From contig DASUKL010000052.1 of NCBI GenBank assembly GCA_036278755.1, positions 22,697 to 86,696 on the forward strand: 64,000 bases of DNA. The letters run 5' to 3'. This stretch comes from Candidatus Limnocylindrales bacterium (lineage in GTDB: Bacteria > Chloroflexota > Limnocylindria > Limnocylindrales > CSP1-4). The stretch's first letter is position 1; each line of letters starts with the position of its first letter. Both the position numbers and the translations under genes were made by a program. This document shows positions 10,037 to 64,000 of the stretch, piece after piece. The notes under the pieces are model-generated. The model was not told where the DNA came from. It searched no databases and saw only the letters and a list, made by a program, of their open reading frames with translations.

Positions 10037-11701
10037 TCAGTCGCTCGGCGTGGCCAGGACCCGAACGGCCTGCCAGCCGGTAGAGCCTGAAGGCAGGGCC
10101 GACGTCTCGTCCCCTGACTGGACGGCACCCGTGCCATCGACCGCCCGCACCACCAGCCGGGCGGGGCCCGTCGGCAGGGTCACCTGCGCTCGCCACAGGA
10201 TCCAGGTCAGCGGACCGAACGGCGCGGCATGGACGTCGTCGAGTTCCGCCGCCTGCCAGGTCGAGCCGCCGTCGGCGGAGAGCTGCACGGCGCTGATGCC
10301 CCGGTCACCGGCGTTGGCGATGCCATAGACCGAGACTGGGCGAGCGGCCGGGACCGAGGCGCCCGGGAGCGGGAAGTCGATCCGCGACATGGTCTTGACG
10401 ATGGCCTGTTCGTCCCAGCCCCGCTCCTCCCAGTAGCCGGCCGGCACGGAGGCCGCGAGGTGCATCCGGGTGACCCACTTGGGCTGCTTCATGCCGAAGC
10501 GCCCGGCGATCAGGACGCGAGCCGGGGCACCATGCTCCACCGGGAGCGCGGCGCCGCCCATCTCGTAGGCGATCCATGAGTCCGGATCGAGCGCCACCGG
10601 GAGGGGGATCGACTCGGTGTAGCCGTCGGCCGCCTCCCAGAGGATGGCAGTGGCGGCGGGCTGGACGCCCACGGGGGCCAGCAGGTCGGCGATCCGGACG
10701 CCCTTCCAGTGCTGGTTGCCGATGAGATGGTCGCCGGCCACGATCTCGGTGCTGATGCATTCCAGGGTCCGATAGGCCGCGAGCGGCGGCCTGGCCCGCA
10801 GCTGGGCCAGGCTGATCGAGGTCGGCCGGTCGACCAGGCCGTCGATCAGGAGCCGCCAGGCTTCGGCGTCGACGTTGGGGGCGATGATGTCCTTGGCCAC
10901 GATGTAGAAGTCGGACACCGGTGTCAGCGGCGGCGTGGGGCCGAAGCTGTCCGGCGGGAAGGTGCTCGCCGTCCCGCCGCTGCGACCCCGGGCCGCGGTC
11001 ACGACCTGGGTGCCCATCGTGCCCAGGGAGGCCAGGATCGAGAGCCCGCCCAGGAGTCCCAGGCCACCGCCCAGGAAGCTGCGCCGGGCAAGCGTCGGGG
11101 CCCCCGCGGCCGGAGGGCCCGTGATCGCCGGGCCCACGAGCCCGGGGCCTGAGGCCGTCGGAGTGCGGGCTAAGGGTCCCGGTCCGGCGGCCGCTCGGCC
11201 GGCCCGGTCGCGCAGGGCAAGGTAGGTGAAGCCGTAGAGGAGGCAAGCCAGCAGCAGCGGCGCGTGCAGGGCCAGCGGATCGAAGCCCGTCTGTGAGCCG
11301 AAGAGCCCCTCCTGGAAGATCGGCAGGACGATGACCTCGGCCAGGGCCAGGAGGCCGATGGCGATCGTCACCGCGTGGCCCGCGTCCGCGGGACGGGGCA
11401 GGTAGCGATCGACGAGGATGCCGACGAGGACGCCGAGGGCGAGGAAGCCGAGTCCCACGCCCAGGTAGACGAGCCCCTTGGCCAGCGGACCGAACGTCGC
11501 GATGGCCGCTCCGACGACCTGGATGGGCAGGAAGCTCAGCCCGTCAGCCAACGCCTCCAGGAAACCGGGCGAGCCGGTCAGGGTGTGGACGGCGACGAGG
11601 ACCAGCAGGCCGGGCCCGGTCGCCAGAAGCCCGGCCAGGGCCGGCTGGCGCAGGGACCTCCCCGGACCCGGGGCGGCCAGGGCTGCAGGCGAGACGGCCA
11701 T
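10037..11701 (-). CDS. sulfite-oxidase-family molybdopterin oxidoreductase (YedY/MsrP-like) fused to an N-terminal polytopic membrane domain
   Basis: C-terminal domain: YRTLECISTEIVAGDHLIGNQHWKGVRIADLL...VRAVDGTG, the SO-family Moco plus dimerisation/Ig fold. The N-terminal 200 aa have 5-6 TM helices. An internal twin-arginine-like ARRSFLGGGLGLLG motif lies at the junction. Start is taken at the ATG at 11701 (MAVSPAALA...). Confidence 0.75.
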   Translation of the reverse strand: MAVSPAALAAPGPGRSLRQPALAGLLATGPGLLVLVAVHTLTGSPGFLEALADGLSFLPIQVVGAAIATFGPLAKGLVYLGVGLGFLALGVLVGILVDRYLPRPADAGHAVTIAIGLLALAEVIVLPIFQEGLFGSQTGFDPLALHAPLLLACLLYGFTYLALRDRAGRAAAGPGPLARTPTASGPGLVGPAITGPPAAGAPTLARRSFLGGGLGLLGGLSILASLGTMGTQVVTAARGRSGGTASTFPPDSFGPTPPLTPVSDFYIVAKDIIAPNVDAEAWRLLIDGLVDRPTSISLAQLRARPPLAAYRTLECISTEIVAGDHLIGNQHWKGVRIADLLAPVGVQPAATAILWEAADGYTESIPLPVALDPDSWIAYEMGGAALPVEHGAPARVLIAGRFGMKQPKWVTRMHLAASVPAGYWEERGWDEQAIVKTMSRIDFPLPGASVPAARPVSVYGIANAGDRGISAVQLSADGGSTWQAAELDDVHAAPFGPLTWILWRAQVTLPTGPARLVVRAVDGTGAVQSGDETSALPSGSTGWQAVRVLATPSD

Positions 11702-11836: not shown

Positions 11837-12283
11837 ATGAAACGTGTCGTCGTCGCCTGGCGGCCCGCTGCCGGCCGCTTCGAGGCCGTCGGCGGCCACG
11901 CTGATTTCCCCATCGCGGTCAACGCGCCCCACGGCGAGGGCCCGGCCACCGGATTCTCGGCGGCCGAGTTGCTGCTCGCGGGCTGTGCCGCCTGCTCCGC
12001 CTGGGACGTGGTCGAGATCCTGCGCAAGGCCCGCCAGCCGCTGGTGGGGCTGGAGGTCGAGGCCGTGGGCACCCAGATGGACGAGCGTCCGTTCGCCTTC
12101 ATCGGAGTGGAGCTCATCTACCGGGCCCAAGGTCCCCGGCTCGACCGCCGTCGGGTGGAGCACGCCGTCCACCTCAGCGTCGAACGCTACTGCTCCGTCA
12201 TCAACACCATCACCGGCGTGGCCACGGTGACCACGCGGGTCGAGCTGGACGAGGTCACCGACCCGGCCGCGACCGTCGCCTGA
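11837..12283 (+). CDS. OsmC/Ohr family peroxiredoxin-like protein
   Basis: 148 aa with the two conserved Cys contexts: LLLAGCAACSAWDVVEILRK and SVERYCSVINTITG. Confidence 0.75.
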   Translation: MKRVVVAWRPAAGRFEAVGGHADFPIAVNAPHGEGPATGFSAAELLLAGCAACSAWDVVEILRKARQPLVGLEVEAVGTQMDERPFAFIGVELIYRAQGPRLDRRRVEHAVHLSVERYCSVINTITGVATVTTRVELDEVTDPAATVA

Positions 12284-18852: not shown

Positions 18853-19025
18853 CGAGCGTCTCCTCGGCAGCGACGAGCGACCGGCGGCCCGTCCTGAGGT
18901 GAGTCTACGCGGCGGCCGACCGGCGGAGTGGCGGCTTCAGCGGACGCGAGGGCACGGATCGGGGTCAGATGACACGGGGCTAGCGTGGGAGCCGACGCGC
19001 CGGGGCCGGGGCTAGACTGGCCCCG

Positions 19026-19616
19026 ATGGTCGCCGCCGTGAGCCAGCCCCAGGACGCCGGGCCCCGCATCGAGCCCGAGGCCTATCGCGACGTCATGGGC
19101 CGATTCGTGACCGGCGTCACGATCGTGACCTGTCTGGACGAGCGTCGGGGGCGGTCCCACCCCTGGGGCACGACGGTCAACGCCTTCAGCTCGGTCAGCC
19201 TGGAGCCCCCGCTCGTCCTCGTCTGCATCGGCCGTGAGCGGTCCATCCACCCCATCATCGCCCGGGCTGGGCGCTTCGCCGTGAACATCCTGGGCGAGGA
19301 CTGCCAGGCCCTCTCCGACTGCTTCGCCGGGGCCCCCGGTAGCCGGGCCAAGGATGCGTTCTGCGAGGCCGCCTACCGGCTGGGACAGGACGGCCTGCCC
19401 GTCCTCGAGGCCAGCATCGCCTACATCGAATGCCTCGTGGAGCAGACTTTGGAAGCCGGCGATCACACGATCTACCTGGCCCGCGTCACCGGCCTGGGCA
19501 CCAGCGAGGTCCATCCTCTGCCGCTTCTCTACTACCGCGGCCGCTATCTGCGCATCGAGCGGGCGGCCACGGCGGCGCTCCAGGGCAAGCCCGACGAGCG
19601 CTACCCCGAGCGCTAG
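19026..19616 (+). CDS. flavin reductase (NAD(P)H:FMN/FAD oxidoreductase, HpaC-like)
   Basis: FRDVMGRFVTGVTIVTCLDERRG...VNAFSSVSLEPPLVLVCIG...FAVNILGED is the flavin_reduct domain. Confidence 0.8.
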   Translation: MVAAVSQPQDAGPRIEPEAYRDVMGRFVTGVTIVTCLDERRGRSHPWGTTVNAFSSVSLEPPLVLVCIGRERSIHPIIARAGRFAVNILGEDCQALSDCFAGAPGSRAKDAFCEAAYRLGQDGLPVLEASIAYIECLVEQTLEAGDHTIYLARVTGLGTSEVHPLPLLYYRGRYLRIERAATAALQGKPDERYPER

Positions 19617-29148: not shown

Positions 29149-29868
29149 GTGCTGACCATCGTCCTCAGCCGCCACGGCCCCACCACCCGCTCCTCCCCCG
29201 AGCAGCATCTGGGCCAGCGCATCGACGCGCCCCTCTCCGAGGACGGACGCGAGGCCGCCCGGCGCCTAGGGGCCCGGCTCTTCGGCATCGACTTCGATCG
29301 GGTCATCGCCAGCCCCCTCTCACGGGCCCAGGAGACGGCCGCCATCGCCGCGCCCGGCTGCCCCGTCGAGGCCGAGGCGCGCCTCCTGGAGATGGACTAC
29401 GGCGCCTGGGAGGGCAAGACGTACGAGCAGATCGAATCGGGCGACGGGCTCTACCGGGCCCGCTGGGAGGCCGATCCGGCCGGCCTGCCCTGCCCCGACG
29501 GCGAGAGCGGCGACGACGTGGCCCGCCGGGTACGGGCCTTCCTCGACGACCTCATCGGCTGGTCGCGTGAGCCCTCCGAACCGTTCGACCCGTTCGACTC
29601 GAGCGATCAGACGTCCAGCCCCCAGGCCGCGGCCGGCCCGCCCGACCATCGCGTCCTGGTCATCGCCCACAGCACCCTCGACCGCATCTTCGTGTGCGTG
29701 GCCCTGGGCGTGCCGATCCACGACTTCCGGCGCCGCTTCCGCCAGGAGCCGGCGAGCCTGACCGTCCTGCGCTTCCCTGGCCGACTGGGGGCCGGGGCCC
29801 TGGCCCTCCTGGTCAACGACGTGTCCCACCTGCGGGGGGTGAGCGGCGCGACCTGGGACGGGCCGTGA
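29149..29868 (+). CDS. histidine phosphatase superfamily protein (phosphoglycerate mutase-like / CobC-like)
   Basis: GTG start. LSRHGPT (RHG motif), SPLSRAQETA, and VIAHSTL (second His). Confidence 0.75.
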   Translation: MLTIVLSRHGPTTRSSPEQHLGQRIDAPLSEDGREAARRLGARLFGIDFDRVIASPLSRAQETAAIAAPGCPVEAEARLLEMDYGAWEGKTYEQIESGDGLYRARWEADPAGLPCPDGESGDDVARRVRAFLDDLIGWSREPSEPFDPFDSSDQTSSPQAAAGPPDHRVLVIAHSTLDRIFVCVALGVPIHDFRRRFRQEPASLTVLRFPGRLGAGALALLVNDVSHLRGVSGATWDGP

Positions 29869-31484
29869 GCCCGCCCTCGGCCCAGCGGCGGAGCCAGGCG
29901 CCGAGCCAGGCGTCGAACCCGCCCCTGATCCTGACCGGCCGCGACCTCGACCTCGAGGCCGTGGCGGCCGTGGCGCGGGATCGGAGGCCGGTGGAGCTCA
30001 AGGCCGAAGCTCGGGCCCGGATGGTCCGCAGCCGGCAGGAGATCGAGCGCATCGTGGCGACCGGCGAGGCCGTCTACGGCGTGACGACCGGCTTCGGCGA
30101 CCTGGCCACCCACCGCATCGCGCCCCAGGACGCCGATCGACTCCAGGAGAACCTCCTCATCAGCCATGCCGTCGGGGTGGGGCCGCGCTTCGACGTGCCC
30201 ACCGTGCGGGCCATGCTCCTGCTGCGGGCCAACACCCTGGCCCTGGGCTACAGCGGCTGCCGGCCGGAGCTCGTGGAGCGGCTGCTCGACTTCCTGCGCC
30301 TGGGCCTCCATCCGGCCGTGCCGGAGCAGGGCAGCGTCGGCGCCTCGGGCGACCTGGCGCCGCTGGCCCACCTGGCCCTCCCGATCATCGGCCGGGGCGA
30401 GGCCGAGTTCGACGGGTCGTGGCTGCCGGGGGCCGAGGCCCTCGCGCAGGCCGGACTCGAGCCCCTGCGCCTGACGGCCAAGGAGGGCCTGGCCCTCCTC
30501 AACGGGACCCAGATGATGAGCGCCGTGGGGTGCCTGGCCGTCCTCGACGCGGAGCGGTTGGCCCACCAGGCCAGCGTCGTGGCGGCCATGAGCGTGGAGG
30601 CCCTCCTGGGCACGGACGTGGCCTTCGCCGCGGCTTACCAGGCCGCCCGGCCCCACCCTGGACAGCGCGACGTCGCCGCGGAGCTGCGCTACGTGTTGCG
30701 CGGCTCGGAGCTCCAGCGCTCGCACCATGGCCAGGCCCACAAGGTCCAGGACCCCTACTCCCTGCGCTGCGTGCCCCAGGTCCACGGCGCGTCGCGGGAC
30801 GCCCTGGCCTACGCCCGCCGGGTCCTCGAGATCGAGATCGGGAGCGCCACCGACAACCCCCTCGTCTTCCCCGAGGGGGCCGGACCCGACGCCGACCCAG
30901 ACGCCCTGGCCACGGCCGGCGGCCACGTGCTCAGCGGGGGGAACTTCCACGGCCAGCCGGTGGCCCTGGCCCTCGACTTCGCCAAGCTGGCGGCGGCCGA
31001 GCTGGCCTCCATCTCCGAGCGGCGCATCGCCCTGCTCATCGACGGCCGGCTGAGCGGCCTGCCGCCCTTCCTGGTGGGCAGCGAGGCCGGCCTCAACAGC
31101 GGCCTGATGCTCCTCCAGTACACCGCTGCGGCCCTCGTTTCAGAAGACAAGGTCCTCGTCCATCCCGCCTCCGCGGACTCCATCCCGACCTCCGCGAACC
31201 AGGAGGACCACGTCTCGATGGGCTCGATCGCGGCCCGCCACCTGCGGGCCGTGGTGACCAATGCCGAGCAGGTCCTGGCTCTCGAGCTGCTGTGCGCGGG
31301 GCAGGGCCTCGACGTGCGCCTGGCCGGCGGCCTGCGGCCGGGGGCCGGAGTGGCCGAGGCCCACCGACGCTTGCGCCAGCGGGTCTCCCACCTGGAGTCG
31401 GACCGGGATCCCGGGCCCGACATCGCGGCCGCCACGGAGCTCATCCGCAGCCACGCCTTCGCCGACCTCCTGCCGCCGGGCTGA
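29865..31484 (+). CDS. hutH: histidine ammonia-lyase
   Basis: GTG overlaps the upstream TGA (GTGA). MIO-forming GSVGASGDLAPLAHLA motif. YGVTTGFGDLA, NPLVF and HGQPVALALD blocks. Confidence 0.9.
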   Translation: MSPPSAQRRSQAPSQASNPPLILTGRDLDLEAVAAVARDRRPVELKAEARARMVRSRQEIERIVATGEAVYGVTTGFGDLATHRIAPQDADRLQENLLISHAVGVGPRFDVPTVRAMLLLRANTLALGYSGCRPELVERLLDFLRLGLHPAVPEQGSVGASGDLAPLAHLALPIIGRGEAEFDGSWLPGAEALAQAGLEPLRLTAKEGLALLNGTQMMSAVGCLAVLDAERLAHQASVVAAMSVEALLGTDVAFAAAYQAARPHPGQRDVAAELRYVLRGSELQRSHHGQAHKVQDPYSLRCVPQVHGASRDALAYARRVLEIEIGSATDNPLVFPEGAGPDADPDALATAGGHVLSGGNFHGQPVALALDFAKLAAAELASISERRIALLIDGRLSGLPPFLVGSEAGLNSGLMLLQYTAAALVSEDKVLVHPASADSIPTSANQEDHVSMGSIAARHLRAVVTNAEQVLALELLCAGQGLDVRLAGGLRPGAGVAEAHRRLRQRVSHLESDRDPGPDIAAATELIRSHAFADLLPPG

Positions 31485-32757: not shown

Positions 32758-33056
32758 CGGATCCCGCAAGGCTGACTGACCAGGCCAGGCTGACGGACCA
32801 GTCACACGGCTGTGGCTTCCGACGGCTGCGACGACGATGCGAGGGCTCATCACGGACGATCCTGAGGCCTACATGGGCATCACCGATCCCGGGTCCAGTG
32901 CTACCCCCAGTGCCATCTGACCTCCTGCGCAGGTCCTGCGAACGTCCGGCTCCGGCGACGACGACGGCGACGAAGCCCTGTCCGATCGCGTCCATGCCCG
33001 CCTGCCCATCGGATCCTCGAACGGAAGCTGGGCCATGGCCCTAGGATGCGTTCATT

Positions 33057-34820
33057 GTGAGTGAGACCGATCCCGGCGCCGCGAACGATCCCGAAACCAG
33101 GACCCCAGGCGCTTCCGGGTCCGGCGTCCGGCCCGATCACGGATCCAGAGCGGGTGCTCCGGCGCCCGGACCGCGGCCCGTCCGGGCCCCCCGCGGCACG
33201 ACGCTCAGCTGTCGGGGCTGGCCCCAGGAGGCCGCCCTCCGGATGCTCATGAACAACCTCGACCCCGAGGTGGCCGAGAACCCCGACGAGCTCGTCGTCT
33301 ACGGCGGCACCGGTCGGGCGGCGCGCAGCTGGGCCGCCTTCGAGGCCATCGTCCGGGAGCTGCGGCGCCTCGGCGACGACGAGACCCTGCTGGTCCAGTC
33401 CGGCAAGCCGGTGGGCGTGCTGCGGACCCACGCCTGGGCCCCCCGCGTCCTCATCGCCAACAGCAACCTCGTCGGCAAGTGGGCCACCTGGGAGACCTTC
33501 CGCGAGCTGGAGCGGCAGGGACTCACGATGTACGGCCAGATGACGGCTGGGTCGTGGATCTACATCGCCACCCAAGGCATCCTCCAGGGCACCTACGAAA
33601 CCTTCGCCGAGTGCGCCCGGCAGCACTTCGGGGGCAGCCTCCGGGGCCGCCTGGTGCTGACCGCCGGCCTGGGCGGGATGGGCGGCGCCCAGCCCCTGGC
33701 CGTGACGATGAACGAAGGCGTGGCCATCGTCATCGAGATCGACCCCGAGCGGGCCCGCCGTCGCCTCGACGCCGGTTACGTCGACCGCCTGACCGAGGAT
33801 CCGGCGGAGGCCCTGGCCTGGGCCCGCGCGGCCGCGGCGGAGGGTCGGGCGGAGTCCATCGCGCTCATCGGCAACGCGGCCGAGATCGAGCCCGCCTGGG
33901 CCTCAGCGGGCGAGCCGTTCGACGTCGTCACCGACCAGACCAGCGCCCACGATGCCCTGGGGGGCTACGTCCCGGCCGAGATCAGCCTGGCCGACGCCCG
34001 CAGCCTGCGCCGCCAGGACCCCGGCCTCTACGAGCGGCGCGCGATGCGCTCGATGGCCGACCAGGTGCGGGCCATCCTGGCCTTCCAGCGGGCCGGCGTA
34101 GTCTGCTTCGACTACGGCAACAACCTGCGGGCCCAGGCCCAGCTGGCGGGGGTCGAGGACGCCTTCGCTTACCCGGGCTTCGTGCCGGCGTTCATCCGGC
34201 CCCTCTTCTGCGAGGGCAAGGGGCCCTTCCGTTGGGTGGCCCTCTCGGGCGACCCGGACGACATCCGACGCACCGATCAGGCCATCCTCGAGCTCTTCCC
34301 CGACGATCCCGCCCTCAGGCGCTGGCTCACCCTGGCCGAGGCCAAAGTGCCCTTCCAGGGCCTGCCGGCCCGCATCTGCTGGCTGGGCTACGGCGAGCGG
34401 GCTCGGGCCGGCCTGGCCTTCAACCGGCTCGTGGCCTCGGGCGAGGTGCGGGCGCCCATCGTCATCGGTCGCGACCACCTCGACGCCGGCAGCGTGGCTT
34501 CGCCCAATCGCGAGACCGAGGGCATGCGCGACGGCTCCGACGCGATCGCCGACTGGCCCCTCCTCAATGCCCTGGTCAACACCGGCGCAGGGGCCACCTG
34601 GGTGAGCATCCATCACGGGGGCGGGACCGGCATCGGCTACTCACAGCACGCCGGCATGGTGGTCGTGGCCGACGGCTCGGAGCTCGCCGCTCAGAAGCTG
34701 GAGCGGGTCCTCACGACGGACCCCGGCATGGGCGTCCTGCGCCATGCCGACGCGGGCTACGAGCGGGCCATCGAGGTCGCCGAGGAGCGCGGCCTCCGCC
34801 TCCCGATGCGCGAGGTCTGA
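33057..34820 (+). CDS. hutU: urocanate hydratase
   Basis: [51 protein letters not shown]...[19 protein letters not shown]...[16 protein letters not shown] aligns collinearly with HutU. The GTG at 33057 is the only in-frame start. Confidence 0.9.
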
Positions 34821-41860: not shown

Positions 41861-41921
41861 GCGGGCGGCTCGCTAGACTTGGCCCGGCCGCCGTGGAGCG
41901 GCCGCCTGGCGAGGAGGAAGC

Positions 41922-42890
41922 GTGGCCCGGCTGGTCGAATGCGTGCCCAACTTCAGCGAGGGGCGCCGGCCCGAGGTGATCGAGTCCCTGGCCGCGGCGG
42001 TGACCGCCGACCCCGAGGTCCAGCTCCTCGATCGGACCAGCGACGTCGACCACAACCGCAGCGTGCTCACCCTGGCCGGCCCGCCGCAGGCCGTGGCGGC
42101 GGCCATGGAGGCCGGCGTGGGCGTGGCCATCGAGCGGATCGACCTCAACGTCCACGAGGGCCAGCATCCGCGGATCGGCGCCGTCGACGTCATCCCCTTC
42201 GTGCCCCTCGGCGACTCGACCATGGACGAGTGCGTCGCCCTGGCCCGGGACTTCGGCGCTCGCATCGCGGAACGCTTCGAGCTGCCCGTCTACCTCTACG
42301 CCCGGGCCGCCCTGCGCCGCGAGCGGACGATCCTGGCCGACATCCGCAAGCCCCAGTTCGAAGGGCTGCGCGACCAGATCAGCCACCCCGGGCGCGCGCC
42401 CGACTTCGGCCCGGCCCGCATCCATCCCACGGCGGGCGCCGTGGCCGTGGGGGCCCGACCCTTCCTCATCGCCTACAACATCAACCTCGAATCGGGCGAC
42501 CTCGACCTGGCCAAGCGGATCGCCCATCGCATCCGCGAGCGATCGGGGGGCCTGCCCCGCGTGCAGGCCCTGGGCCTCTACCTGGCCGACCTCCGCTGCG
42601 CCCAGGTCTCGATGAACCTGCTCGACTTCACGGTCACGCCGATGTGGCAGGTCTGGGAGCAAGTCGGGGCCGCGGCGGCGGTCGAGGGCGTCCGCCTCCG
42701 CGAGTCGGAGCTCATCGGCCTGGCCCCCCTGGCCGCCCTGACCGACGTGGCCGACCATGTCGGCGTGCCGACCGGGGCGCCGGTCGAGGAGCGCCTGCAG
42801 GCTGCCGCGGCCCGGCTGCGGATCCGCGACTTCCGCCCCGACATGGCCCTCGAACTGCGCCTCGCTGAAGCCGCCCGCGGGCCCGCGTGA
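41922..42890 (+). CDS. ftcD: glutamate formimidoyltransferase (FtcD formiminotransferase domain only)
   Basis: MARLVECVPNFSEGRRPEVIESL...DHNRSVLTLAG...GAVDVIPFVP aligns with the N-terminal FT domain of FtcD. No cyclodeaminase domain. Confidence 0.8.
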   Translation: MARLVECVPNFSEGRRPEVIESLAAAVTADPEVQLLDRTSDVDHNRSVLTLAGPPQAVAAAMEAGVGVAIERIDLNVHEGQHPRIGAVDVIPFVPLGDSTMDECVALARDFGARIAERFELPVYLYARAALRRERTILADIRKPQFEGLRDQISHPGRAPDFGPARIHPTAGAVAVGARPFLIAYNINLESGDLDLAKRIAHRIRERSGGLPRVQALGLYLADLRCAQVSMNLLDFTVTPMWQVWEQVGAAAAVEGVRLRESELIGLAPLAALTDVADHVGVPTGAPVEERLQAAAARLRIRDFRPDMALELRLAEAARGPA

Positions 42891-42941
42891 GCGGCGCGAG
42901 CGGCTCGGCCCGGTGAGCGCGATCACGGCACGGAGGCCTGG

Positions 42942-44255
42942 GTGAGCGCAGCCGGTTCGAGCGCCCTCCTCGTCGTCGGCGCGGCCGAGGTGGTGACCAT
43001 GGCCGGCGGCCTGCGCGGGGGCGCGAGCCAGGATGAGCCGGCCATCCTGTCGGCCGATGGGCCGGCCGTGGCCATCCAGGGGCAGCGCCTGGTGGCCGTT
43101 GGCGGGGAGGAGGCCGTGCGGGCTCGGCTCGACGAGCTGGGGCTGGGAGGGCCGGGGCTGGAGGTCCTCGACGCTCGAGGCGGGACCGTCACACCGGGGC
43201 TCATCGACCCCCACACCCACTTGCTCTTCGCCGGCACGCGCGAGGCGGAGCTGCGGCTCCGGCAGCGGGGCGCCGGCTACCTCGAGATCCTGGCCGCCGG
43301 CGGCGGCATCCTCTCCACCGTCGAACGGACCCGCGCGGCGAGCGTGGACGAGTTGCTGGCGCACGGCCGCCGCTGGCTGGGAGCCATGCTGGGCCACGGC
43401 GTGACGACGGTCGAGGCCAAGTCCGGCTACGGCCTCGAACGGGCCACGGAGCTGCGGCTCCTCGAGGTCGCCGGCCAGCTCGACGCGGAAGGCCCGGTCG
43501 AGGTCGTGCCCACCTTCCTCGGGGCCCACGCTGTGCCGGCCGAGTACCGCGACGAGCCGGGCGGCGGGGCCGAGGCCTACCTGCGCTCGGTCATCGACGC
43601 GCAGCTGCCGGCCGTCGTCGAGCAGGGCCTCGCCCGCTCCTGTGACGTGTTCTGTGAGGCCGGCGTCTTCAGCCCCGACCAGTCGCGCCGGCTCCTGCTG
43701 GCGGCCCGCGAACGGGACCTGGCCGTCCGACTCCATGCCGACGAGCTGGCACCGTCGGGCGGAGCCGAGCTGGCGGCCGAGCTGGGCGCCCTGTCGGCCG
43801 ACCACTTGGCCGCGCCATCGACCGAGGGGGTGGCCGCCCTGGCTCGAGCCGCGGCCGAAGGTCGGGCGGTCGTGGCCGTCCTCCTACCCGCCACCACCCT
43901 GTTCCTCATGAAGGACGAAGGCGCGCCGGCCCGGGCCTTCGTGGAGGCTGGCGTGCCCGTGGCCCTGGGCACCGACTTCAACCCCGGCACCTCGCCCACG
44001 GCCAACCTGCCCCTGGTCCTCTCGCTGGCCGTCCTGCGCCTCCGGCTCAGCCCTTCGGAGGCCCTCGCCGCGGTAACCGTCAATGCTGCCGCGGCGCTGG
44101 GGCTGGGGGAGAGCCACGGCTCGCTCGAGCCGGGCAAGCAGGCCGACCTCGTGATCTGGGACGCGCCCTCCCACGAGCTGCTGCCCTATTGGTTGGGGGC
44201 GGACCTCGTGCGGGTGGTGGTCAAGCGGGGGCGGGTGGTGGTCGACCGCCGCTGA
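42942..44255 (+). CDS. hutI: imidazolonepropionase
   Basis: PGLIDPHTHLLFAG, GGGILSTV, TTVEAKSGYGL, RLHADELA and LGTDFNPGTS are collinear with HutI. Confidence 0.9.
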   Translation: MSAAGSSALLVVGAAEVVTMAGGLRGGASQDEPAILSADGPAVAIQGQRLVAVGGEEAVRARLDELGLGGPGLEVLDARGGTVTPGLIDPHTHLLFAGTREAELRLRQRGAGYLEILAAGGGILSTVERTRAASVDELLAHGRRWLGAMLGHGVTTVEAKSGYGLERATELRLLEVAGQLDAEGPVEVVPTFLGAHAVPAEYRDEPGGGAEAYLRSVIDAQLPAVVEQGLARSCDVFCEAGVFSPDQSRRLLLAARERDLAVRLHADELAPSGGAELAAELGALSADHLAAPSTEGVAALARAAAEGRAVVAVLLPATTLFLMKDEGAPARAFVEAGVPVALGTDFNPGTSPTANLPLVLSLAVLRLRLSPSEALAAVTVNAAAALGLGESHGSLEPGKQADLVIWDAPSHELLPYWLGADLVRVVVKRGRVVVDRR

Positions 44256-46305: not shown

Positions 46306-47979
46306 CTACATCGACTCGGGCGCGGAGATGCCCAGCAGACCCAGGGTGTCGGCCAGGGCGAGGCGGACGGCGGAGACGAGGCGCAGGCGCTGGGCCGAGG
46401 TGACCGCGTCGGTCGCATCGACCACCCGCCGGTCGCGGTAGTAGGCGTGGAAGGCGGTGGCCAGCTCGGTGGCATAGGTGGCCAGGCCCTGAGCTTCCTC
46501 GGCCGCGGCGGCGTCCTCGACGACTTCGGACAGGCGCAGCACGCGCAGGGCCAGGGCGGCGGCGACGGGGTCGTGGGCCAGGGCCTGAGGATCCGTGGCC
46601 GGGGCGGCCGCGAGGTCGGCCTCGGCGGCCTTGCGGAGGATCGAGCTGATCCGGGCGTGGGCGTACTGGGCGTAGTAGACCGGGTTCTCCGCGGACTGCT
46701 TCTTGGCCAGCTCGATGTCGAAGTCGATGCCCACGGTGTGCCCGCGGGCGGCGAAGAACCAGCGGGCCGCGTCGACCCCGATCTCGGCCAGCAGCTCGTC
46801 GAGGGTGATGAACTCCCCGGCGCGCTTGGACATCGAGACCTCCGCCCCATCGCGCACGAAGCGGACCCAGGCGATAAGCAGGACCTCCACCCGCTCGGCC
46901 CCGAAGCCCATGGCCTGGGCGGCGTTGCGCAGGCGAGCCACGGTGCCGTGGTGGTCGGCCCCCCAGAGGTAGATGAGCCGGTCGAAGCCGCGCCCGAACT
47001 TGTCCACGAGGTATCCGACGTCCGAGCCGAAGTACGTGGACTGGCCGTTGGAGCGGCGCAGGACGCGGTCCTTGTCGTCACCGTAGCTCGTGGAGCGGAA
47101 CCACAGCGCCCCGTCCTGCTCGTAGGTCGCGCCGGCCGCGGCGAGCCTGGCCAGGGCGTCCTCGACGTGGCCTTCGGCGTACAGCGAGCCCTCGCTCTTC
47201 CAGACGTCGAAGCGGACCCCCAGGCGAGCCAGCGAAGCCTCGATGCCGGCCCGGATGCGCTCCGAGGCCCAGGCGCCCAGGAGGCTCTCGGCATCGGCGC
47301 CAGGGGCCTCGGCCTGGGCCCACAGCTCGGCCGGCAGCTCGGCCGCCAGGGTCTCGACGTAGGCCCCGCGATAGCCGTCCTCGGGGATCGGCTGGCCGGC
47401 CCGCACGGCCCGCACCGAGGCGCCCAGGTTGCGGACCTGCGAGCCGAAGTCGTTGAAGTAGTACTCGCGGGTGACGTGGTGGCCGGCGGCTTCGAGGATG
47501 CGGCATAGGAGATCGCCCACGAAGGCCCCCCGGGCGTTGCCGATGTGCAGCGGCCCGGTGGGATTGGCCGAGACGAACTCGACGTCGATGCGCCGGCCCC
47601 CGCCCTGCCCCGCCGGCAGGCGGCCGAAGTCCGGCCCGGCGACGAGGGCCGCGTCGAGGGCTGCGGCCAGGTGGTCCGGGGCGAGACGGACGTTGAGGAA
47701 GCCCGGCGCAGCGACCTCGACCCCGGCGATGGCCGGATCCGCGACGCGGGCCGCGATGGCCGCGGCGATGGCCATCGGCGGGCGGCGCAGCGGGCGGGCC
47801 AGCTTGAGGGCCAGGTTGGAGGCGTAGTCGCCATGGGCCGGGTCGCCGGGCCGCTCGACCTCGACGGCCGGCGGGCCGGAGGCCTCGGTGTCGTGGGTCA
47901 GGTCGCCGGCCGCGACGGCGGCGAGATAGGCCCGTTCGATGGCCTGGCGCACGGCGCTGCGCAGGGTGCCTGGCTCCAC
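46306..47979 (-). CDS. argS: arginine--tRNA ligase
   Basis: 557 aa. VEFVSANPTGPLHIGNARGA (HIGH region), MSKRAG (KMSKS-like), and the C-terminal DALR anticodon-binding domain. GTG start with GGAGG SD. Confidence 0.9.
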   Translation of the reverse strand: MEPGTLRSAVRQAIERAYLAAVAAGDLTHDTEASGPPAVEVERPGDPAHGDYASNLALKLARPLRRPPMAIAAAIAARVADPAIAGVEVAAPGFLNVRLAPDHLAAALDAALVAGPDFGRLPAGQGGGRRIDVEFVSANPTGPLHIGNARGAFVGDLLCRILEAAGHHVTREYYFNDFGSQVRNLGASVRAVRAGQPIPEDGYRGAYVETLAAELPAELWAQAEAPGADAESLLGAWASERIRAGIEASLARLGVRFDVWKSEGSLYAEGHVEDALARLAAAGATYEQDGALWFRSTSYGDDKDRVLRRSNGQSTYFGSDVGYLVDKFGRGFDRLIYLWGADHHGTVARLRNAAQAMGFGAERVEVLLIAWVRFVRDGAEVSMSKRAGEFITLDELLAEIGVDAARWFFAARGHTVGIDFDIELAKKQSAENPVYYAQYAHARISSILRKAAEADLAAAPATDPQALAHDPVAAALALRVLRLSEVVEDAAAAEEAQGLATYATELATAFHAYYRDRRVVDATDAVTSAQRLRLVSAVRLALADTLGLLGISAPESM

Positions 47980-48329
47980 GCTTCCTCCGATCTCCTTGGG
48001 GTCGGGGCCAGCCTAGTCGCTCCCACGTGACCGCGCCGAGGGGATGTGGTGGGGCCCGACCTGTCCGACCGCCCGGGCGGCAGAAGTCCCGTCCGGGTCC
48101 TAGTCGCTCGGTGCGACAGGGCACCGGATATCGACCGCCGGCAGGGCGGGTGCGCCGGGGTGCAGGCCGGTCCAGGGGAGTCTGGTGCACTTCGTTCGTA
48201 CTGGACAGACCCATGACCATCCGCGACACTGCCGGTACTTCGTAAGGCAGGTCGTAAGGACCGGCCACCAACATCCGAGGTGACCCCTCGGTCAGCCATC
48301 ATCGCGACGACCGTCCCGTCGCCAGAGCC

Positions 48330-49409
48330 ATGACGAAAGGACCCCACGTGTCTGCCCGACCTGATCCAAACCTCTTCCATCTCGGTAGGACGCGCCGGCG
48401 CTCCGGCCCCGCGGTCGTCCTGGCCACCGTGGCCATGCTAGGGGTCGCCCTCGGCGGGGGGTCGATCGCGTTCGCTGCCGGGCCCGGCAACAACGGCCTC
48501 GGAACCCCGAACGACGGCTCCACGTCAGCCGTCATGGTCGGGGGCAGCGTCACCGCCGCCGGCGGTAGCGCGACGATGAACACGAACGCCACGATGTCGT
48601 GCACCTCGAACGACTCGGTGCTTGGCTTCAGCGGCTCGTTCACCTTGGACAAGACCGTCGACTCCGGTTCCCGGTTCGTGGTCTATCTCGTTCCCAACAA
48701 CGGTTCGGACGCGAACCCCAGCACCAACGTCGCCGCCAACTCCGCCACCGTCACGGTCAGCGCGCCTGACAACTTGAGCGGCAAGACCATCTCCTTCTCG
48801 ATCCCGATCACCAGCGCATTCACCGAGTCCAGTGGTGGCATCCTGATCGTCTTCGCGGTCAACTCGGACAGCATCACGGCCATCTCGTCGAGCAAGTCGA
48901 ATTCCCTGAACTGCAGCGAGGCCGCCACGCCGACGCCCACCGTGGCGCCCACGCCGACCCCGACGGTCGCCCCGACGCCGACGCCCACCGTGGCGCCCAC
49001 GCCGACCCCGACCGTGGCCCCGACGCCCACGCCCACCGTGGCGCCCACGCCGACCCCGACCGTGGCCCCGACGCCGACCCCGACCATCGCACCCACGCCG
49101 ACCCCGACCGTGGCCCCGACGCCGACCCCGACCATCGCACCCACACCCACGCTGCCCAACACCGAGGGCTCGCCCACCCCGACGCCCTCCGGCACGGTCG
49201 TCCCGGCCACGTCCACACCGGCCCCCTCGGGGACCGTCGAGCCGGCCACCCCGACCCCGACAGCCGGCCACACCCTGCCGGCGACCGACACGACCGGCTC
49301 CGGCGGGCCGTCCGGCCCCGGCTCATGGTTCCCGCTCCTCCTGCTCGGTCTGGCCTGCCTGGCCGCTGGGATCGTGCTCCTGAGGCCGGCTCCGGCACCG
49401 CGCCGCTAA
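48330..49409 (+). CDS. secreted cell-surface repeat protein with C-terminal membrane anchor (sortase-/exosortase-like sorting signal)
   Basis: N-terminal signal ([25 protein letters not shown]). A 150-aa S/T/N-rich domain. About 9.5 tandem copies of a 27-bp repeat encoding (A)PTPTPTVAP (48921-49150). C-terminus [19 protein letters not shown], then [18 protein letters not shown], then RPAPAPRR. Confidence 0.6.
48921..49150 (+). repeat. 27-bp in-frame tandem repeat (about 9.5 copies; alternating two codon variants, effectively a 54-bp higher-order unit) within the surface protein CDS
   Basis: gccacgccgacgcccaccgtggcgccc / acgccgaccccgaccgtggccccg units repeat perfectly. Last copies have V to I substitutions. 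Confidence 0.85.
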
Positions 49410-49521
49410 CCAGCCACGGCGCCCGCGGGGGGCGGGCGCTCATGAGGGGGACCCTGGGGGGAACCGAGAGGCGGGCCGAAAGGCCCGCCTCTTCGCGTCT
49501 GCTGGCGGGGTCGGCCTCGGT

Positions 49522-50289
49522 TCAGCCCTCCTCGAGGTGCTCCAGGACGAGGCCCGGCCGGGCCATGGCCACCGGGCCGTCGAACGTGCGGCGGGCTCGG
49601 GTCGCTGCGCCCGCCACGGCCTGGTCCAGGACGTGGGTCAGGATGAGCCGGCTGGCCCCTCCGTCGCGCGCCACGGCCGCGGCCTCGGCGGCATCGAGGT
49701 GCATCGCGGCCGGTTCGTTGGGCAGGGCCCCGAAGGCGGCCTCGGAGAGCAGCGTGTCCCTGGGCCGTACGAGGGCCAGCAGGTCGGCCATCCGGCCGCA
49801 GTCACCCGAGTAGACGAGCCCCGGACCGTCGGCCGCGCCGGCCGGCGTGATCCGGAAGGCAAAGCTGGGGCCCACGTGCGTCACGACCCCGATCTCGACC
49901 TCCAGTTCGCCGATCGTCCGGCGCCCGGGCTCGAGCTCGAGGCCCGAGCCGGGCAGGCAGCTCAGGAAGTCGGGCTCGTGCATCAGCACGTCATAGCGGG
50001 CCCGCAGGCCCACCGGCGCGTGGAGGGCCAGGGAGTGGCCCGGCCCGCAGCCCCAGCGCAGGTAGTGGCGCAGGGGGACGAGATCGATGTGATGGTCGGG
50101 GTGGAGGTGGCTGATCATCATCGCCGTCAGGCTCTCGGGCGGCAGCCGCGAGCCCAGGGCGGCGAAGCTGCCCTGTCCGATGTCGAAGCAGATCCGCGTC
50201 TCGCCCTCCTCCACGAGGTAGCAGGAGGAGGAGAGGCCGGCCGAGCGCCGGGTGTAGGCCGGGCCGGCACCGACCACGGTCAGCTTCAT
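49522..50289 (-). CDS. MBL-fold metallo-hydrolase (RNase Z/ElaC-like subfamily)
   Basis: ATG at 50289 (MKLTVVGAGPAY...). MMISHLHPDHHIDLVPL (HxHxDH). C-terminal LILTHV. The upstream part of the 409-aa ORF is Arg/Pro junk. Confidence 0.65.
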   Translation of the reverse strand: MKLTVVGAGPAYTRRSAGLSSSCYLVEEGETRICFDIGQGSFAALGSRLPPESLTAMMISHLHPDHHIDLVPLRHYLRWGCGPGHSLALHAPVGLRARYDVLMHEPDFLSCLPGSGLELEPGRRTIGELEVEIGVVTHVGPSFAFRITPAGAADGPGLVYSGDCGRMADLLALVRPRDTLLSEAAFGALPNEPAAMHLDAAEAAAVARDGGASRLILTHVLDQAVAGAATRARRTFDGPVAMARPGLVLEHLEEG

Positions 50290-51143
50290 GCGCCCACGGC
50301 CCCGGGAGCCACGGGCAGCGGCCCATCCAGGGGCAGCGCACCGCGGCGCCAGGCGAGGGCCGCGAAGCCGGACCGCTCGAGCAGCCCGTACGCCTCGCTG
50401 AGGCCGAAGCCGAAGTGGTCGAGCCGATGGGCGTCGGAGCCGGCCGTCACGCGCTGGCCGCCCAGGGCCCGGAAGCGCTCCACGGCGGCCCGCGGCGGAT
50501 AGGTCTCGAGCGCCTCCTGGCGCAGCCCCGAGCTGTTGACCTCGAGGGCCGTGCCGCTCTCCACGAGGGCCGTCAGGACCCGCTCGTAGAGGTCGGCGTG
50601 GGGCTCGTAGGCGAAGGGACCCAGATAGGGCACGAGGTAGCGCTTGATGAAGTCGAGGTGGCCCAGGGTGTCGAACAGACCGCTCCGAGCGGCCGCCTCG
50701 ACCTCCTTCCAGTAGGGCTGACTGGCCTCGCGGGGCGTCTTGTCGGCGCACCAGCGGGCCGCGGCGGTCCGATCACGAAAGGGGCTGTCGGGCCCCACGT
50801 GGACCGAGCCGATGATGAAGTCGTAGGCATGGCTCGCCAGATGGGCCCGGATGTCGTCCTCGAAGCGGCGCTCGTAGGTGATCTCGACGCCGAAGCGGAT
50901 GATGGGCCGGCCGGCCCAGCGCTCAGCGGCCTCGCCGACGACCCGTCGCCGGCGCTCGTAGTCGGTGAAGGCGAAGGCCGGGGCTCGGGGGTCGAAGTCG
51001 AGGTGGTCGGTGATCATCAGCTCGGCCACCTCGCGCTCCCGAGCGGCAGCGGCGTAGAGGTCGATGGGGACGTCCGCATCCGGCGAGAGGTCGGTGTGGA
51101 GGTGGGCATCGAGGGGCAGATCCAGGCGGTCGGGCGTGGGCAT
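50286..51143 (-). CDS. PHP-domain phosphoesterase (HisJ/histidinol-phosphatase-like family)
   Basis: LDAHLHTDLSPDA, ELMITDHLDFD, FIIGSVHV, AGSDAHRLDHFG are PHP metal-binding His/Asp motifs. Stop overlaps the MBL ATG (ATGA). Confidence 0.7.
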   Translation of the reverse strand: MPTPDRLDLPLDAHLHTDLSPDADVPIDLYAAAAREREVAELMITDHLDFDPRAPAFAFTDYERRRRVVGEAAERWAGRPIIRFGVEITYERRFEDDIRAHLASHAYDFIIGSVHVGPDSPFRDRTAAARWCADKTPREASQPYWKEVEAAARSGLFDTLGHLDFIKRYLVPYLGPFAYEPHADLYERVLTALVESGTALEVNSSGLRQEALETYPPRAAVERFRALGGQRVTAGSDAHRLDHFGFGLSEAYGLLERSGFAALAWRRGALPLDGPLPVAPGAVGA

Positions 51144-51728: not shown

Positions 51729-53039
51729 CTACTGCGAAGCGGCCGCCCGCATCAGCTCGTAAGCGCGGCGATGGTCGCCGCTCTCCGCGGCTAGGGCGGC
51801 CCAGGCCCGCAGGACCTCTGCCCGCCGCGACGGCAGACCATGCTCGGCGGCTATGTCGGCAGCGCGCTCGAAGTCGGTCGCCGCAGCCGACACATCGCCC
51901 AGAGCCTGCGCCGCCCGCGCCCGGGTGGTGAGGGCGTCGATCGCCGCCTTGTGATTGCTGCTGGCCTCCGCGTGCGTAAGCGCCGTCGTGGCCAGCTCGC
52001 GGGCGTTCTTGGGTTGACCGCGGGCGATAGCGATCTGGGCCTGCGTGTCGAGGACGTGGGCCAGCTTGCGCACATCATCGAAGCGAGCGAGGGCGGCGGC
52101 AGCCGCGGCCGCGTGGGTCTCGGCCGCGACGAGGTTGCCCAGCACGAGATAGGTCAGGGCGAGGTTGTTGTCCATCGCCGCGGCGTCGCGCTCGGCGGCC
52201 GCCTCGGCGTAGAGCGCCACGCTCCGCTGGCCCTGTCGCAGCGCCCCCTCGAAGTCGCCAAGTTCTCGGTAGCTGGCGGAGAGGGCGGCCGCGAACGAGG
52301 CGCGGCGCAGGGCATCGAAGCCGGCAGCGGCGCGCTGCGCCTCCTGGAGGAGGGCCAGGGCACTGGCGTGATCCCCGCGCCGGGCGTCCACGTTGGCCGC
52401 CGCCACCAGCGCGCGCACGTGCAGGTCCGGATCGACGCCCGGGTCGCCTGAGCGATCATCGAGCAGGCCGCGGAGCAGGCCGCGGGCCTCATCGAGGTCA
52501 TCGCTGCCGTAGTAGGCGGCGGAGAGCCAGTAGCGTGCCAGCGCAGCATCCGCAAGGCGGCCCGCCGCAGTGAAGAGCTCGAGGGCCTCCCCAGCCGGCG
52601 CGATCGCGTCGGCGCCCCGATCCAGGCGACAGAGCGCCTCGGCCTGGGCGCGCAAGAGCTCGGCCCGGGTCAGCGCGGCGGGCTCCCGGGCGAGGAGGGC
52701 GGCGTACCCGTCGGCCGCGGCCTGCCAATCGCCCGAGGCGAGATGCAGATCGGCATCGAGCCGCAGGGCGACGACGTCATCGTCACCTACGAGTGTGGCG
52801 GGCGTCGTCCCGAGCCGGGCTGCGAGATAGGCCAGCGCCTTGATCGATGGTTGGGTCAGGCTGTTCTCGAGGGCCGAGACATACGCCTTCGAGTACTGCT
52901 CGCCCGCTAGTTCCGCCTGGGTCAGCCCGGCTGCCAGACGAGCGGCACGGATCCGTGCGCCCATGCCCTGTGCGCTCCGGGCCGGAGGCCGCCCGACGCG
53001 ACGGGCCGACGGGGCCGATCGGGCGGACGTCGTGCTCAT
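51729..53039 (-). CDS. XRE-family HTH transcriptional regulator with C-terminal TPR-like helical repeat domain
   Basis: IRAARLAAGLTQAELAGEQYSKAYVSALENSLTQPSIKALAYLAARLG (HTH_XRE). Then about 330 aa of Ala-rich helical repeats. Confidence 0.75.
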   Translation of the reverse strand: MSTTSARSAPSARRVGRPPARSAQGMGARIRAARLAAGLTQAELAGEQYSKAYVSALENSLTQPSIKALAYLAARLGTTPATLVGDDDVVALRLDADLHLASGDWQAAADGYAALLAREPAALTRAELLRAQAEALCRLDRGADAIAPAGEALELFTAAGRLADAALARYWLSAAYYGSDDLDEARGLLRGLLDDRSGDPGVDPDLHVRALVAAANVDARRGDHASALALLQEAQRAAAGFDALRRASFAAALSASYRELGDFEGALRQGQRSVALYAEAAAERDAAAMDNNLALTYLVLGNLVAAETHAAAAAAALARFDDVRKLAHVLDTQAQIAIARGQPKNARELATTALTHAEASSNHKAAIDALTTRARAAQALGDVSAAATDFERAADIAAEHGLPSRRAEVLRAWAALAAESGDHRRAYELMRAAASQ

Positions 53040-62832: not shown

Positions 62833-63804
62833 TCAGCAGACGCCCTGCTCGGGGTTGGTCTGGTCCATGTTCTGTTCGGCGAAGACGAGGCCGAGATTGG
62901 CGTCGAAGGTGTCCGTCAGATACACCCGGTCCCAGGAGAGCAGGGCGAAGCGGGTGGTCATGTCGTCGAAGCGGACGACGATGACCTTGTTGGGCAGGCC
63001 GCAGGCCTTCGCCCCGGCCGTCTGCGGGGCGGTGTCGAAGACGGTCTGCATGGCCGTCATCTCCTCCGAGCTGGGGCACGTGGTGCCGTCCTTGCCGCAG
63101 CTATAGGCGATGACCACATAGCCGTGCTCCAGGTTGTGGACGAAGCCGCCGGGCTTCTGCTCCTGGGTGGCCGGGTAGAAGGCCCGCGGCAGCGGGCCGA
63201 CACCGGCGATGTTGTAGTGGTTGCCGGAGGCGGGCGGGCAGAAGGCGTACTCGATGGATTGGTTCGCGTCCAGGACGTGGGTCCGGCCCATGTCGTTGGT
63301 GACGAAGCCCAGGCGGGTGGTGGGCTCCGGCGTGGGGCTGGGACTCGGCGTGGTCGTCGGGCTGGGCGAAGGCGTGGGGCTGGTCGAGGTGGTCGGACTT
63401 GCGCTGGGGCTGGCGGTCGGGCTCGGGCTCTCCGTCGGGCTGGGGCTCGGGGTCTCGCTGGGGCTCGGCGTCGGCGCGACGTAGGACGGGATCGACTGGC
63501 TGGGCCCGGGGGTCAGCAGGCTGTCGCAGCTGTAGGCCTTGCCGCTGCTGGGCAGGAAGACGAAGAAGGCCACGAGAGCGATCCCGGCCAGGGTGAAGCC
63601 GCCCAGCACGAAGCCGCCGTAGCGATCGAAGAACGAACGCTCCCGGGTCGTGTGGGCCCGCCGGTTGCGCTCTCGACGGGCCTGGCGGCGCTCGGCCGCG
63701 GAAGAGGCGGGCTCGTCGTCGGCGGCCTGGTCGCGGTCGGCGGCAGGCAGCAGGGAGGACGGGGCGGGGGCTCGGCCGGCGGGGCGGCGTGAACGTTTGG
63801 CCAC
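62833..63804 (-). CDS. DUF3105 domain membrane-anchored protein
   Basis: Basic N-terminus, TM ([20 protein letters not shown]), S/P/T-rich linker ([31 protein letters not shown]...). C-terminal domain has [13 protein letters not shown] and Cys pairs typical of DUF3105. Confidence 0.65.
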
Positions 63805-64000
63805 AGGGTCAGCGAACCTCGGCGGTCGATGGAGGGATCAGCCCGGGCGACGGGGCGCCGACGGCGTCAGCCGGGGTGGCTGCACCATCCGGGTGCACAG
63901 GGTAGCGCCGCCGCTCACAGCTCGCAGGGGTCCCTTGCTCGCAGGGGATGGACGCTCGCGCCGGGGTCATAGCTCGCTGAACCAGGCCCGCGAGGAGGAG

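Follow-up and report, generated by a model that had tools for sequence, protein, structure and literature searches.

Sortases are known to recognise LPXTG, the LPNTA of class D, the LAXTG of class E, the NPQTN of class B and the (S/P)PXTG of C. difficile. In LPXTG signals (TIGR01167/PF00746), a pentapeptide with an invariant proline at position 2 and an invariant threonine at position 4 is followed by a hydrophobic segment and a basic tail, and N-terminal domains of the DUF11/CLIPPER, SpaA or SdrD_B type are among those found with such signals in Gram-positive bacteria. PEP-CTERM, PGF-CTERM and GlyGly-CTERM tails likewise combine a lineage-restricted motif, a membrane segment and a basic cluster on many secreted paralogues, and are often preceded by Pro/Thr/Ser-rich linkers. 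Exosortases, archaeosortases and rhombosortases have signals whose signature motif is immediately adjacent to the membrane segment. Here, we analyse a surface-protein gene in a 64,000-nucleotide stretch of a Candidatus Limnocylindrales genome (contig DASUKL010000052.1; 72% G+C), referred to below as the window, with particular regard to the C-terminal tail of its product.

The gene is real, and its product is nothing unusual among the displayed proteins specific to the lineage: a secreted cell-surface protein of Limnocylindrales comprising a signal peptide, an Ig-like head, a Pro/Thr stalk and a C-terminal anchor, in agreement with a preliminary description of this DNA, which had proposed a cell-surface repeat protein. 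The tail module is a conserved LPXTG-like signal that is apparently undescribed, to judge from the profile libraries and the literature searched; nothing relevant was found in the literature for LPPTD or for sortases in Limnocylindria or Chloroflexota. Limnocylindria are abundant in soils and lakes, and we know of no member that has been cultured. A single C-terminal module marks what are apparently most of their displayed surface proteins, amounting to at least 712 clusters at 50% identity. It provides a simple sequence tag for listing surface proteomes from metagenomes, and phylogenetic profiling could use it to trace the cognate sorting enzyme. Should that enzyme prove to be a sortase that accepts xPxTD, its specificity would be new and could find use in protein ligation.

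The C-terminal tail module

The preliminary description had recognised a sorting-signal-like C-terminus with a hydrophobic helix and a basic tail, which our analysis supports, but had read the LPATD of the window as a near-miss of LPXTG. This reading has to be replaced. The lineage consensus consists of T-x-P-P-T-D-T, about 13 residues, W-R, 16 hydrophobic residues, T-P and a basic tail, and LPATD is a variant of the [L/P]-P-P-T-D that this consensus contains. The window tail is a variant of a conserved modular Limnocylindria signal and not a decayed LPXTG. The module is present at the end of every full-length homologue of the window protein.

We built a profile (A1) from 24 tails; among 1.84 billion cluster representatives (50% identity clusters), it matched 712 proteins with E ≤ 1e-3, of which 89 reached E ≤ 1e-10. 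The best 150 of the 712 matches were located at, or a few residues from, the C-terminus of proteins of 50-783 aa. A word-indexed search with the tail profile returned only 17 proteins, most of them short, and no matches were obtained with a profile restricted to the tail subtype of the window. Whether any other protein shares the tail had been raised earlier as a check; in related genomes, the answer is given by these 712 clusters, with up to four or more tail proteins per island (the island is described below).

Among 186 aligned tails, the motif columns are strongly conserved (T5 94%, P7 99%, P8 81%, T9 98%, T11 67%). Position 6 is occupied by L in 45% and by P in 29%, and position 10 by D in 82%, S in 10% and A in 5%, G being essentially absent. 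A spacer block of about 10-13 residues, rich in G, S, P and T, leads to a hydrophobic segment of 16 residues and an R/K-rich C-terminal end, and conservation extends to the columns at the membrane boundaries (D22 68%, W24 73%, R25 73%, T42 74%, P43 98%). The distance from the motif threonine to the membrane segment shows a narrow distribution, mostly 12-17 residues.

Orthologues of the window family in distant Limnocylindria carry VPNTA(M/I/L/F), TPNTAF or QPDTST in the motif position. The orthologue from a Dehalococcoidia metagenome-assembled genome (MAG) has FPPTGG there, followed by a membrane segment and an RRRR tail, and in one Limnocylindrales sublineage the motif is (Q/E)-P-x-T-(D/A/N). 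Given that the motif varies as x-P-x-T-(D/A/S/G) across lineages, it behaves as an LPXTG-type signal. In a small sublineage, five of the 186 tails (P0091, P0136, P0183, P0185 and P0186) contain a canonical LPx(T/S)G directly after PPPTDT; PPPTDT-LPATG-TPGGDSWR is an example of two candidate sortase-type motifs in tandem.

With regard to the proteins that bear the tail, 103 have a length of at least 150 aa, and the majority of these match no domain. The remainder include DUF7507/CLIPPER_2 (8), DUF11/CLIPPER (7), SpaA (4), DUF5979, SdrD_B and SpaA_4 (2 each) and Trypsin_2 (1). These N-terminal domains are mutually unrelated. One tail variant, AWLLVVALGVLLASxVVLTPARAKSRR, was found on at least 10 N-terminal types, members of the window family among them. 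Tail variants follow the lineage of the genome rather than the protein family, which points to a shared trans-acting partner. In the alignment of the 103 proteins (A4), unrelated families often share a similar signal-peptide region as well (R..GWL..A.ML..A...P), and both ends of the tail-bearing proteins look modular.

Comparison with described sorting signals

The Limnocylindria tail has in common with LPXTG signals the invariant proline and threonine at positions 2 and 4, a hydrophobic segment and a positively charged end, which is RPAPAPRR in the window; the window protein also carries a predicted N-terminal secretion signal. Many unrelated surface proteins bear the tail (SpaA, SdrD_B, CLIPPER, DUF5979), as they do LPXTG, and the fifth position of the motif differs by clade (D, A, S, G), as it does among sortase signals. 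A recent survey used LP.T[G/A/N/D] as its sortase regular expression (PMC12617251). The explanation that we favour, with a probability of about 0.5, is that the tail is processed by a sortase-type enzyme and that the protein becomes linked to the wall. The product would then be a monomeric surface protein exported by Sec, whose hydrophobic segment and basic tail would retain the C-terminus in the membrane. A housekeeping sortase-type transpeptidase, whose gene would lie in another part of the genome, would recognise the xPxT/D motif about 13 residues outside the membrane, cut after the threonine and attach the protein to the wall. The head would be kept tens of nanometres off the wall by the rigid Pro/Thr stalk, which may be O-glycosylated.

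Several observations weigh against processing by a sortase. In place of the L-P-x-T-G pentapeptide, the window has L-P-A-T-D, with Asp instead of Gly at position 5, and position 1 of the motif is loose in the lineage (L/P/A/Q/E). The gap between motif and membrane segment, given as 12-15 residues or, counted from the motif threonine, 12-17, is longer than in classical LPXTG signals. W-R on the outer face and T-P on the cytoplasmic face are conserved, are absent from LPXTG signals and could indicate a different, membrane-embedded partner. No LPXTG or other sorting-domain hidden Markov model (HMM) of Pfam or NCBIfam release 20.0 reached its cut-off in scans that covered the whole window protein, its isolated tail, consensus tails and motif variants. 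Finally, searches with a TLxTC-type regular expression and with phmmer and S. aureus SrtA detected no sortase-like open reading frame (ORF), either in the window or in 84 related loci totalling about 1.04 Mb (12 look-up neighbourhoods plus 46 and 26 loci). A further difference from LPXTG is an extra conserved threonine two residues upstream of the Limnocylindria motif.

The best sub-threshold scores of LPXTG-type models were those of Microco_LAVTG (16.5-20.1 bits against a cut-off of 27) and GVDTG_CTERM (NF058571; 18.8 against 29). LPxTATN (NF058670) scored 12.6 against 32, and the PNTA and LPPTAT variants did not match it either. The alignments to GVDTG_CTERM and LPxTATN cover residues 12-42 and 24-41 of the 49-aa tail, that is, the spacer and/or the hydrophobic part, and exclude LPATD. 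PGF_CTERM (8.7 bits against 24.5) and MYXO-CTERM (7.9-14.3 against 20) also remained below threshold and aligned with the hydrophobic part only.

As regards the processing enzyme, the absence of a sortase from the window had been stated in the preliminary description, and no sortase signature was found in the 64 kb. The SrtA probe is valid; in the PDB, it reaches sortases of classes A, C and D and not those of classes B, E and F. All-against-all clustering of 856 neighbouring ORFs revealed no recurrent sortase, exosortase-like or other membrane-enzyme candidate. By chance, however, only about 0.4 unlinked single-copy genes are expected to be seen in this sample of loci, and the absence therefore shows only that the enzyme is unlinked to its substrates. 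TIVTC in the window ORF 18984-19613 was considered as a sortase signature and looks like a chance occurrence; by eye, this ORF resembles a cytoplasmic flavin reductase.

Without any enzyme, the tail module would be a plain membrane anchor. The corresponding alternative, an uncleaved type-I anchor in which T-x-P-P-T-D is kept as a glycosylation site, as a hinge or by gene conversion, appears unlikely to us, yet has arguments on its side. A hydrophobic segment followed by R/K suffices for anchoring, and no processing enzyme was found near more than 80 loci. Moreover, the tail genes are clustered in one island, which favours recombination among them, and paralogues within an island can have identical tails, as in locus L004, which fits gene conversion or duplication. 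Nevertheless, the motif proline and threonine are invariant (99% and 98%) although the membrane segments have diverged, which gene conversion within a genome fails to explain. While its distance from the membrane stays fixed, the motif also switches as a unit between clades (PPTD, PNTA, PPTG), as enzyme recognition sites do, and the hydrophobic core of about 16 residues between R and T-P is short for a permanent anchor.

We regard as slightly less probable still that the tail is the signal of a new non-sortase system specific to Limnocylindria, which would read W-R, the membrane segment and T-P in addition to PPTD. The enzyme could be exosortase/archaeosortase-like, rhombosortase-like, a CPBP-type membrane protease or novel. 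The conservation of P43 (98%), T42, W24 and R25 at both membrane boundaries, where membrane-embedded sorting enzymes act, argues for such a system, as do the lack of a match to known sorting-domain models and the lack of a sortase in the window and the 84 related loci. On the other hand, about 13 residues separate the best-conserved motif from the membrane, whereas the motifs known for exosortases and rhombosortases abut it; no HMM for exosortase or archaeosortase signals was matched. The tail also differs from the rhombosortase GlyGly-CTERM in its boundary, which reads G-S-W-F-P-L, without GG, the only match being SVAGG at 11 bits against 150. No conserved membrane-enzyme candidate recurs beside the island, and the xPxT(D/A/G) variation together with the SpaA/CLIPPER cargo points to a sortase.

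A wider proposal is that the tail is the recognition signal of an undescribed sorting system restricted to Limnocylindria, with its substrates concentrated in the argS-adjacent island. Such a system would rely on a sortase class whose specificity at position 5 is for Asp/Ala, or else on an enzyme of another kind altogether. We put this forward tentatively and consider it doubtful.

Gene family, head domain and stalk

The features of the gene and its surroundings are given in Table 1.

Table 1. Coordinates of the surface-protein gene, its parts and its neighbours in the window
Feature	Position	Strand	Remarks
argS (arginyl-tRNA synthetase)	46306..47979	-	Pfam Arg_tRNA_synt_N, tRNA-synt_1d, DALR_1; conserved divergent neighbour
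Divergent intergenic region, 350 bp	47980..48329	.	TCGTAAGG x2, CCTAGTCGCTC x2, GTACTGGAC
Surface-protein coding sequence	48330..49409	+	359 aa plus stop; frame kept in 50 homologues
Predicted signal peptide	48330..48476	+	basic n-region (RTRRR), hydrophobic core, AFA/AGPG site; read from sequence
2-Cys beta-sandwich head domain	48477..48920	+	about 148 aa, conserved; outside all Pfam/NCBIfam families
24-bp-unit tandem array (PTPTPTVA)	48920..49148	+	about 9.4 copies, 48-bp higher-order repeat
Imperfect 39-bp duplication	49174..49249	+	coincides with a G-x-V-E-x-A-T-G-T-P block, weakly conserved ahead of the tail in homologues
Core motif T-L-P-A-T-D-T (aa 315-321)	49272..49292	+	window version of the lineage consensus T-x-P-P-T-D-T
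Gly/Ser/Pro spacer, 12 aa, ending in Trp	49293..49328	+	alignment of tails
Hydrophobic membrane segment, 18 residues	49329..49382	+	sequence and tail profile
Cytoplasmic tail RPAPAPRR	49383..49406	+	the first Pro, next to the membrane segment, is 98% conserved across the tail family
GC-rich hairpin	49466..49493	.	dG -33.1 kcal/mol, z -3.9; between the convergent surface-protein and MBL genes
MBL-fold hydrolase gene	49522..50289	-	convergent neighbour; far end of the tail-protein island in relatives
PHP gene	50286-51143	same operon direction as MBL (suggested)	next after MBL

The ORF of the preliminary description was recovered with its limits unchanged. Two antisense ORFs (48525-49271 and 48683-49291) overlap the gene and have an equally high G+C content at third codon positions (GC3), so the coding strand is settled by homology and not by composition alone; the antisense ORFs are by-products of the repeat. 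When the first 199 residues were used as a query, 50 homologues were obtained (E 5e-54 to 2.5e-14), and every named source among them was a Chloroflexota or Candidatus Limnocylindrales MAG. The 46 family loci found in species-representative genomes are nearly all from Limnocylindria, the exceptions being one MAG labelled Methylomirabilota and one Dehalococcoidia MAG, and the closest relative in this collection is 59% identical to the window protein. No record of an identical protein was found, and the source would thus be a Limnocylindrales species not sampled before. An alternative start, GTG at 48348 with AAGGA 8 nt upstream, coincides with the start of the closest homologue, P0001. A Pfam scan of the whole protein gave no match at E ≤ 1, and NCBIfam gave none above cut-off.

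The signal-peptide region is aligned in all homologues and ends ahead of an invariant GPG; the AlphaFold 2 (AF2) model has a pLDDT below 60 in this region. Cleavage is predicted at AFA/AGPG. In the head alignment (A2), which comprises the window protein and 25 homologues (n = 26), 24 columns are invariant. They include G51-P52-G53 just after the predicted cleavage site, C91, C195, K189, N123, N133, N137 and N194, and an invariant stretch, SSK(S/T)NSLNC(T/S)E, marks the end of the domain. The window protein displays all features of the family, namely GPG..G, C91...C195, PNNGS..P..NV..N, the GG.L.VFA strand and SSK.NSLNC.E. The AF2 model of the head exceeds a pLDDT of 90, and structure comparison retrieved only generic Ig/FN3/CBM-like folds, with no specific relative among solved structures. 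The head represents a new family with a generic Ig-like fold. That it serves in adhesion or binding is a guess.

The stalk of the window protein consists of about 118 Pro/Thr-rich residues in 8-residue units. Tandem Repeats Finder described positions 48920-49144 as 9.4 copies at period 24 (80% matches) or 4.7 copies at period 48 (93%). The earlier estimate of about 9.5 copies is thus borne out, whereas the perfect, nearly identical 27-bp repeat encoding PTPTPTVAP is not: the unit is 24 bp or 8 aa, the first proline of the next unit having been counted in, and the match percentages are those just given. At the protein level, the units are near-perfect (seven PTPTPTVA and two PTPTPTIA). At the DNA level, two synonymous versions of the unit alternate, and an exact 48-bp duplication is confined to 49044-49091 and 49092-49139. 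The recent expansion or contraction proposed earlier can be maintained for this duplication, but not for the rest of the array, in which units differ synonymously. The proposal of a length-variable spacer fared better, as the linkers of relatives show: in close relatives whose heads are almost alike, the linkers span 80-120 aa and keep the same 8-aa period, so copy number varies between them, even though most of the window array is not recent. Across the family, the 8-residue period is a common trait (PEPTPVVT, PTATPTEA, PSESPSEQ and others), with linkers of 33-122 aa.

It is extremely improbable that the feature is an artefact, either a mis-assembled repeat or a chance ORF in a non-coding GC-rich stretch: short-read MAG assemblies often collapse or mis-join tandem repeats and long high-GC3 antisense ORFs overlap the array, but domain order and the flanks on either side of the array are conserved in 50 homologues, the 8-aa period is a family trait and the units differ synonymously as in a real, older array, and copy number alone could be wrong.

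The stalk resembles the Ser-Asp stalks of staphylococcal Clf/Sdr proteins and the Pro/Thr linkers of actinobacterial glycoside hydrolases in being a low-complexity repeated spacer of variable copy number, and, like the stalks of wall-anchored adhesins, it is placed between a folded head and the C-terminal anchor. It differs from them in its unit, the 8-residue PTPTPTVA, and in the head that it supports, which lacks a solved relative beyond the generic Ig/FN3-like fold. Judging by its Pro/Thr composition, the stalk may form an extended rod, possibly O-glycosylated.

The argS-adjacent island and its surroundings

The divergent arrangement with argS reported in the preliminary description was found again here, and 50 of the 85 clustered sequences (the 84 related loci and the window) include a homologue of argS. 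A recurrent gene order in Limnocylindria is argS (-), one or more tail genes (+) and the MBL gene (-), often followed by an extracytoplasmic function (ECF) sigma factor gene, the PHP gene, kbl and tdh. In relatives, the interval between argS and MBL contains from one to at least four tail genes with different heads, including SpaA/CLIPPER proteins of 1500-1900 aa (loci L003, L004, L010, L021, L028, L030, L038, L059 and L077-L079); in the window, the island (47980-49521) contains a single tail gene. The argS-adjacent interval is a variable surface-protein island. With interchangeable heads on a common stalk and tail, it looks like a surface-variation locus.

In L004, the ORFs 8974-9309, 10466-10801 and 11892-12260 have an identical 75-aa C-terminus within one island. 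This could be due to tandem duplication, gene conversion or an assembly repeat, and several of these short ORFs may be fragments of frameshifted genes.

In the intergenic region between argS and the surface-protein gene, a direct repeat and a second repeated element had been reported. The direct repeat, TCGTAAGG-N4-TCGTAAGG, is real, with 0.01 expected by chance, although its position is 48240-48259 and not 48237-48260. The second element, CCTAGTCGCTC, is indeed present twice, at 48012 and 48099, but the signal is weak, with three matches (at most one mismatch) against 1.6 expected. The octamer repeat of TCGTAAGG was absent from all 84 related loci, and a role as a conserved operator was rejected (0/84), only its first half falling within a block shared with the nearest relative. 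The blocks conserved between the two intergenic regions are GTACTGGAC and TCCGCGA..TG.CG.TACTTCG, located at 48199-48207 and 48221-48246 in the window and at about 4990-5060 in the nearest relative, L084. GTACTGGAC and the TCCGCGA..TACTTCG block are possible promoter or operator elements. A scan for sigma-70 consensus promoters found none, and an Rfam scan of the intergenic region and the gene gave no match. Downstream of the gene, a scan for canonical intrinsic terminators was negative; the GC-rich hairpin resembles a terminator stem without the U-run.

The PHP and MBL genes share 4 nt (ATGA, 50286-50289), which comprise the PHP stop codon and the predicted ATG of MBL; this suggests translational coupling of the two within one operon that runs convergently to the surface-protein gene. 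In 18 related loci, an ECF sigma gene is located immediately outside the island, where the window has none. The position held in relatives by the ECF sigma and putative anti-sigma genes is occupied in the window by a gene for a regulator with HTH_3 and TPR domains (MalT-like; 51729-53039, -), and, owing to additional genes, the distance between PHP and kbl/tdh is about 9 kb greater than in relatives. Further along, the protein encoded at 62836-63837 (-) has, by eye, a membrane segment at its N-terminus, a linker rich in Pro, Ser and Thr and a domain similar to DUF3105 (HNLEHG); homologues of this protein were found near the island in 13 related loci. On the other side of argS, hutH-, hutU-, FTCD- and hutI-like genes were recognised by eye at 29571-31481, 33045-34817, 41877-42887 and 42891-44252. 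Conservation of synteny thus extends further, since 16-20 related loci have homologues of hutU, hutI and FTCD upstream of argS.

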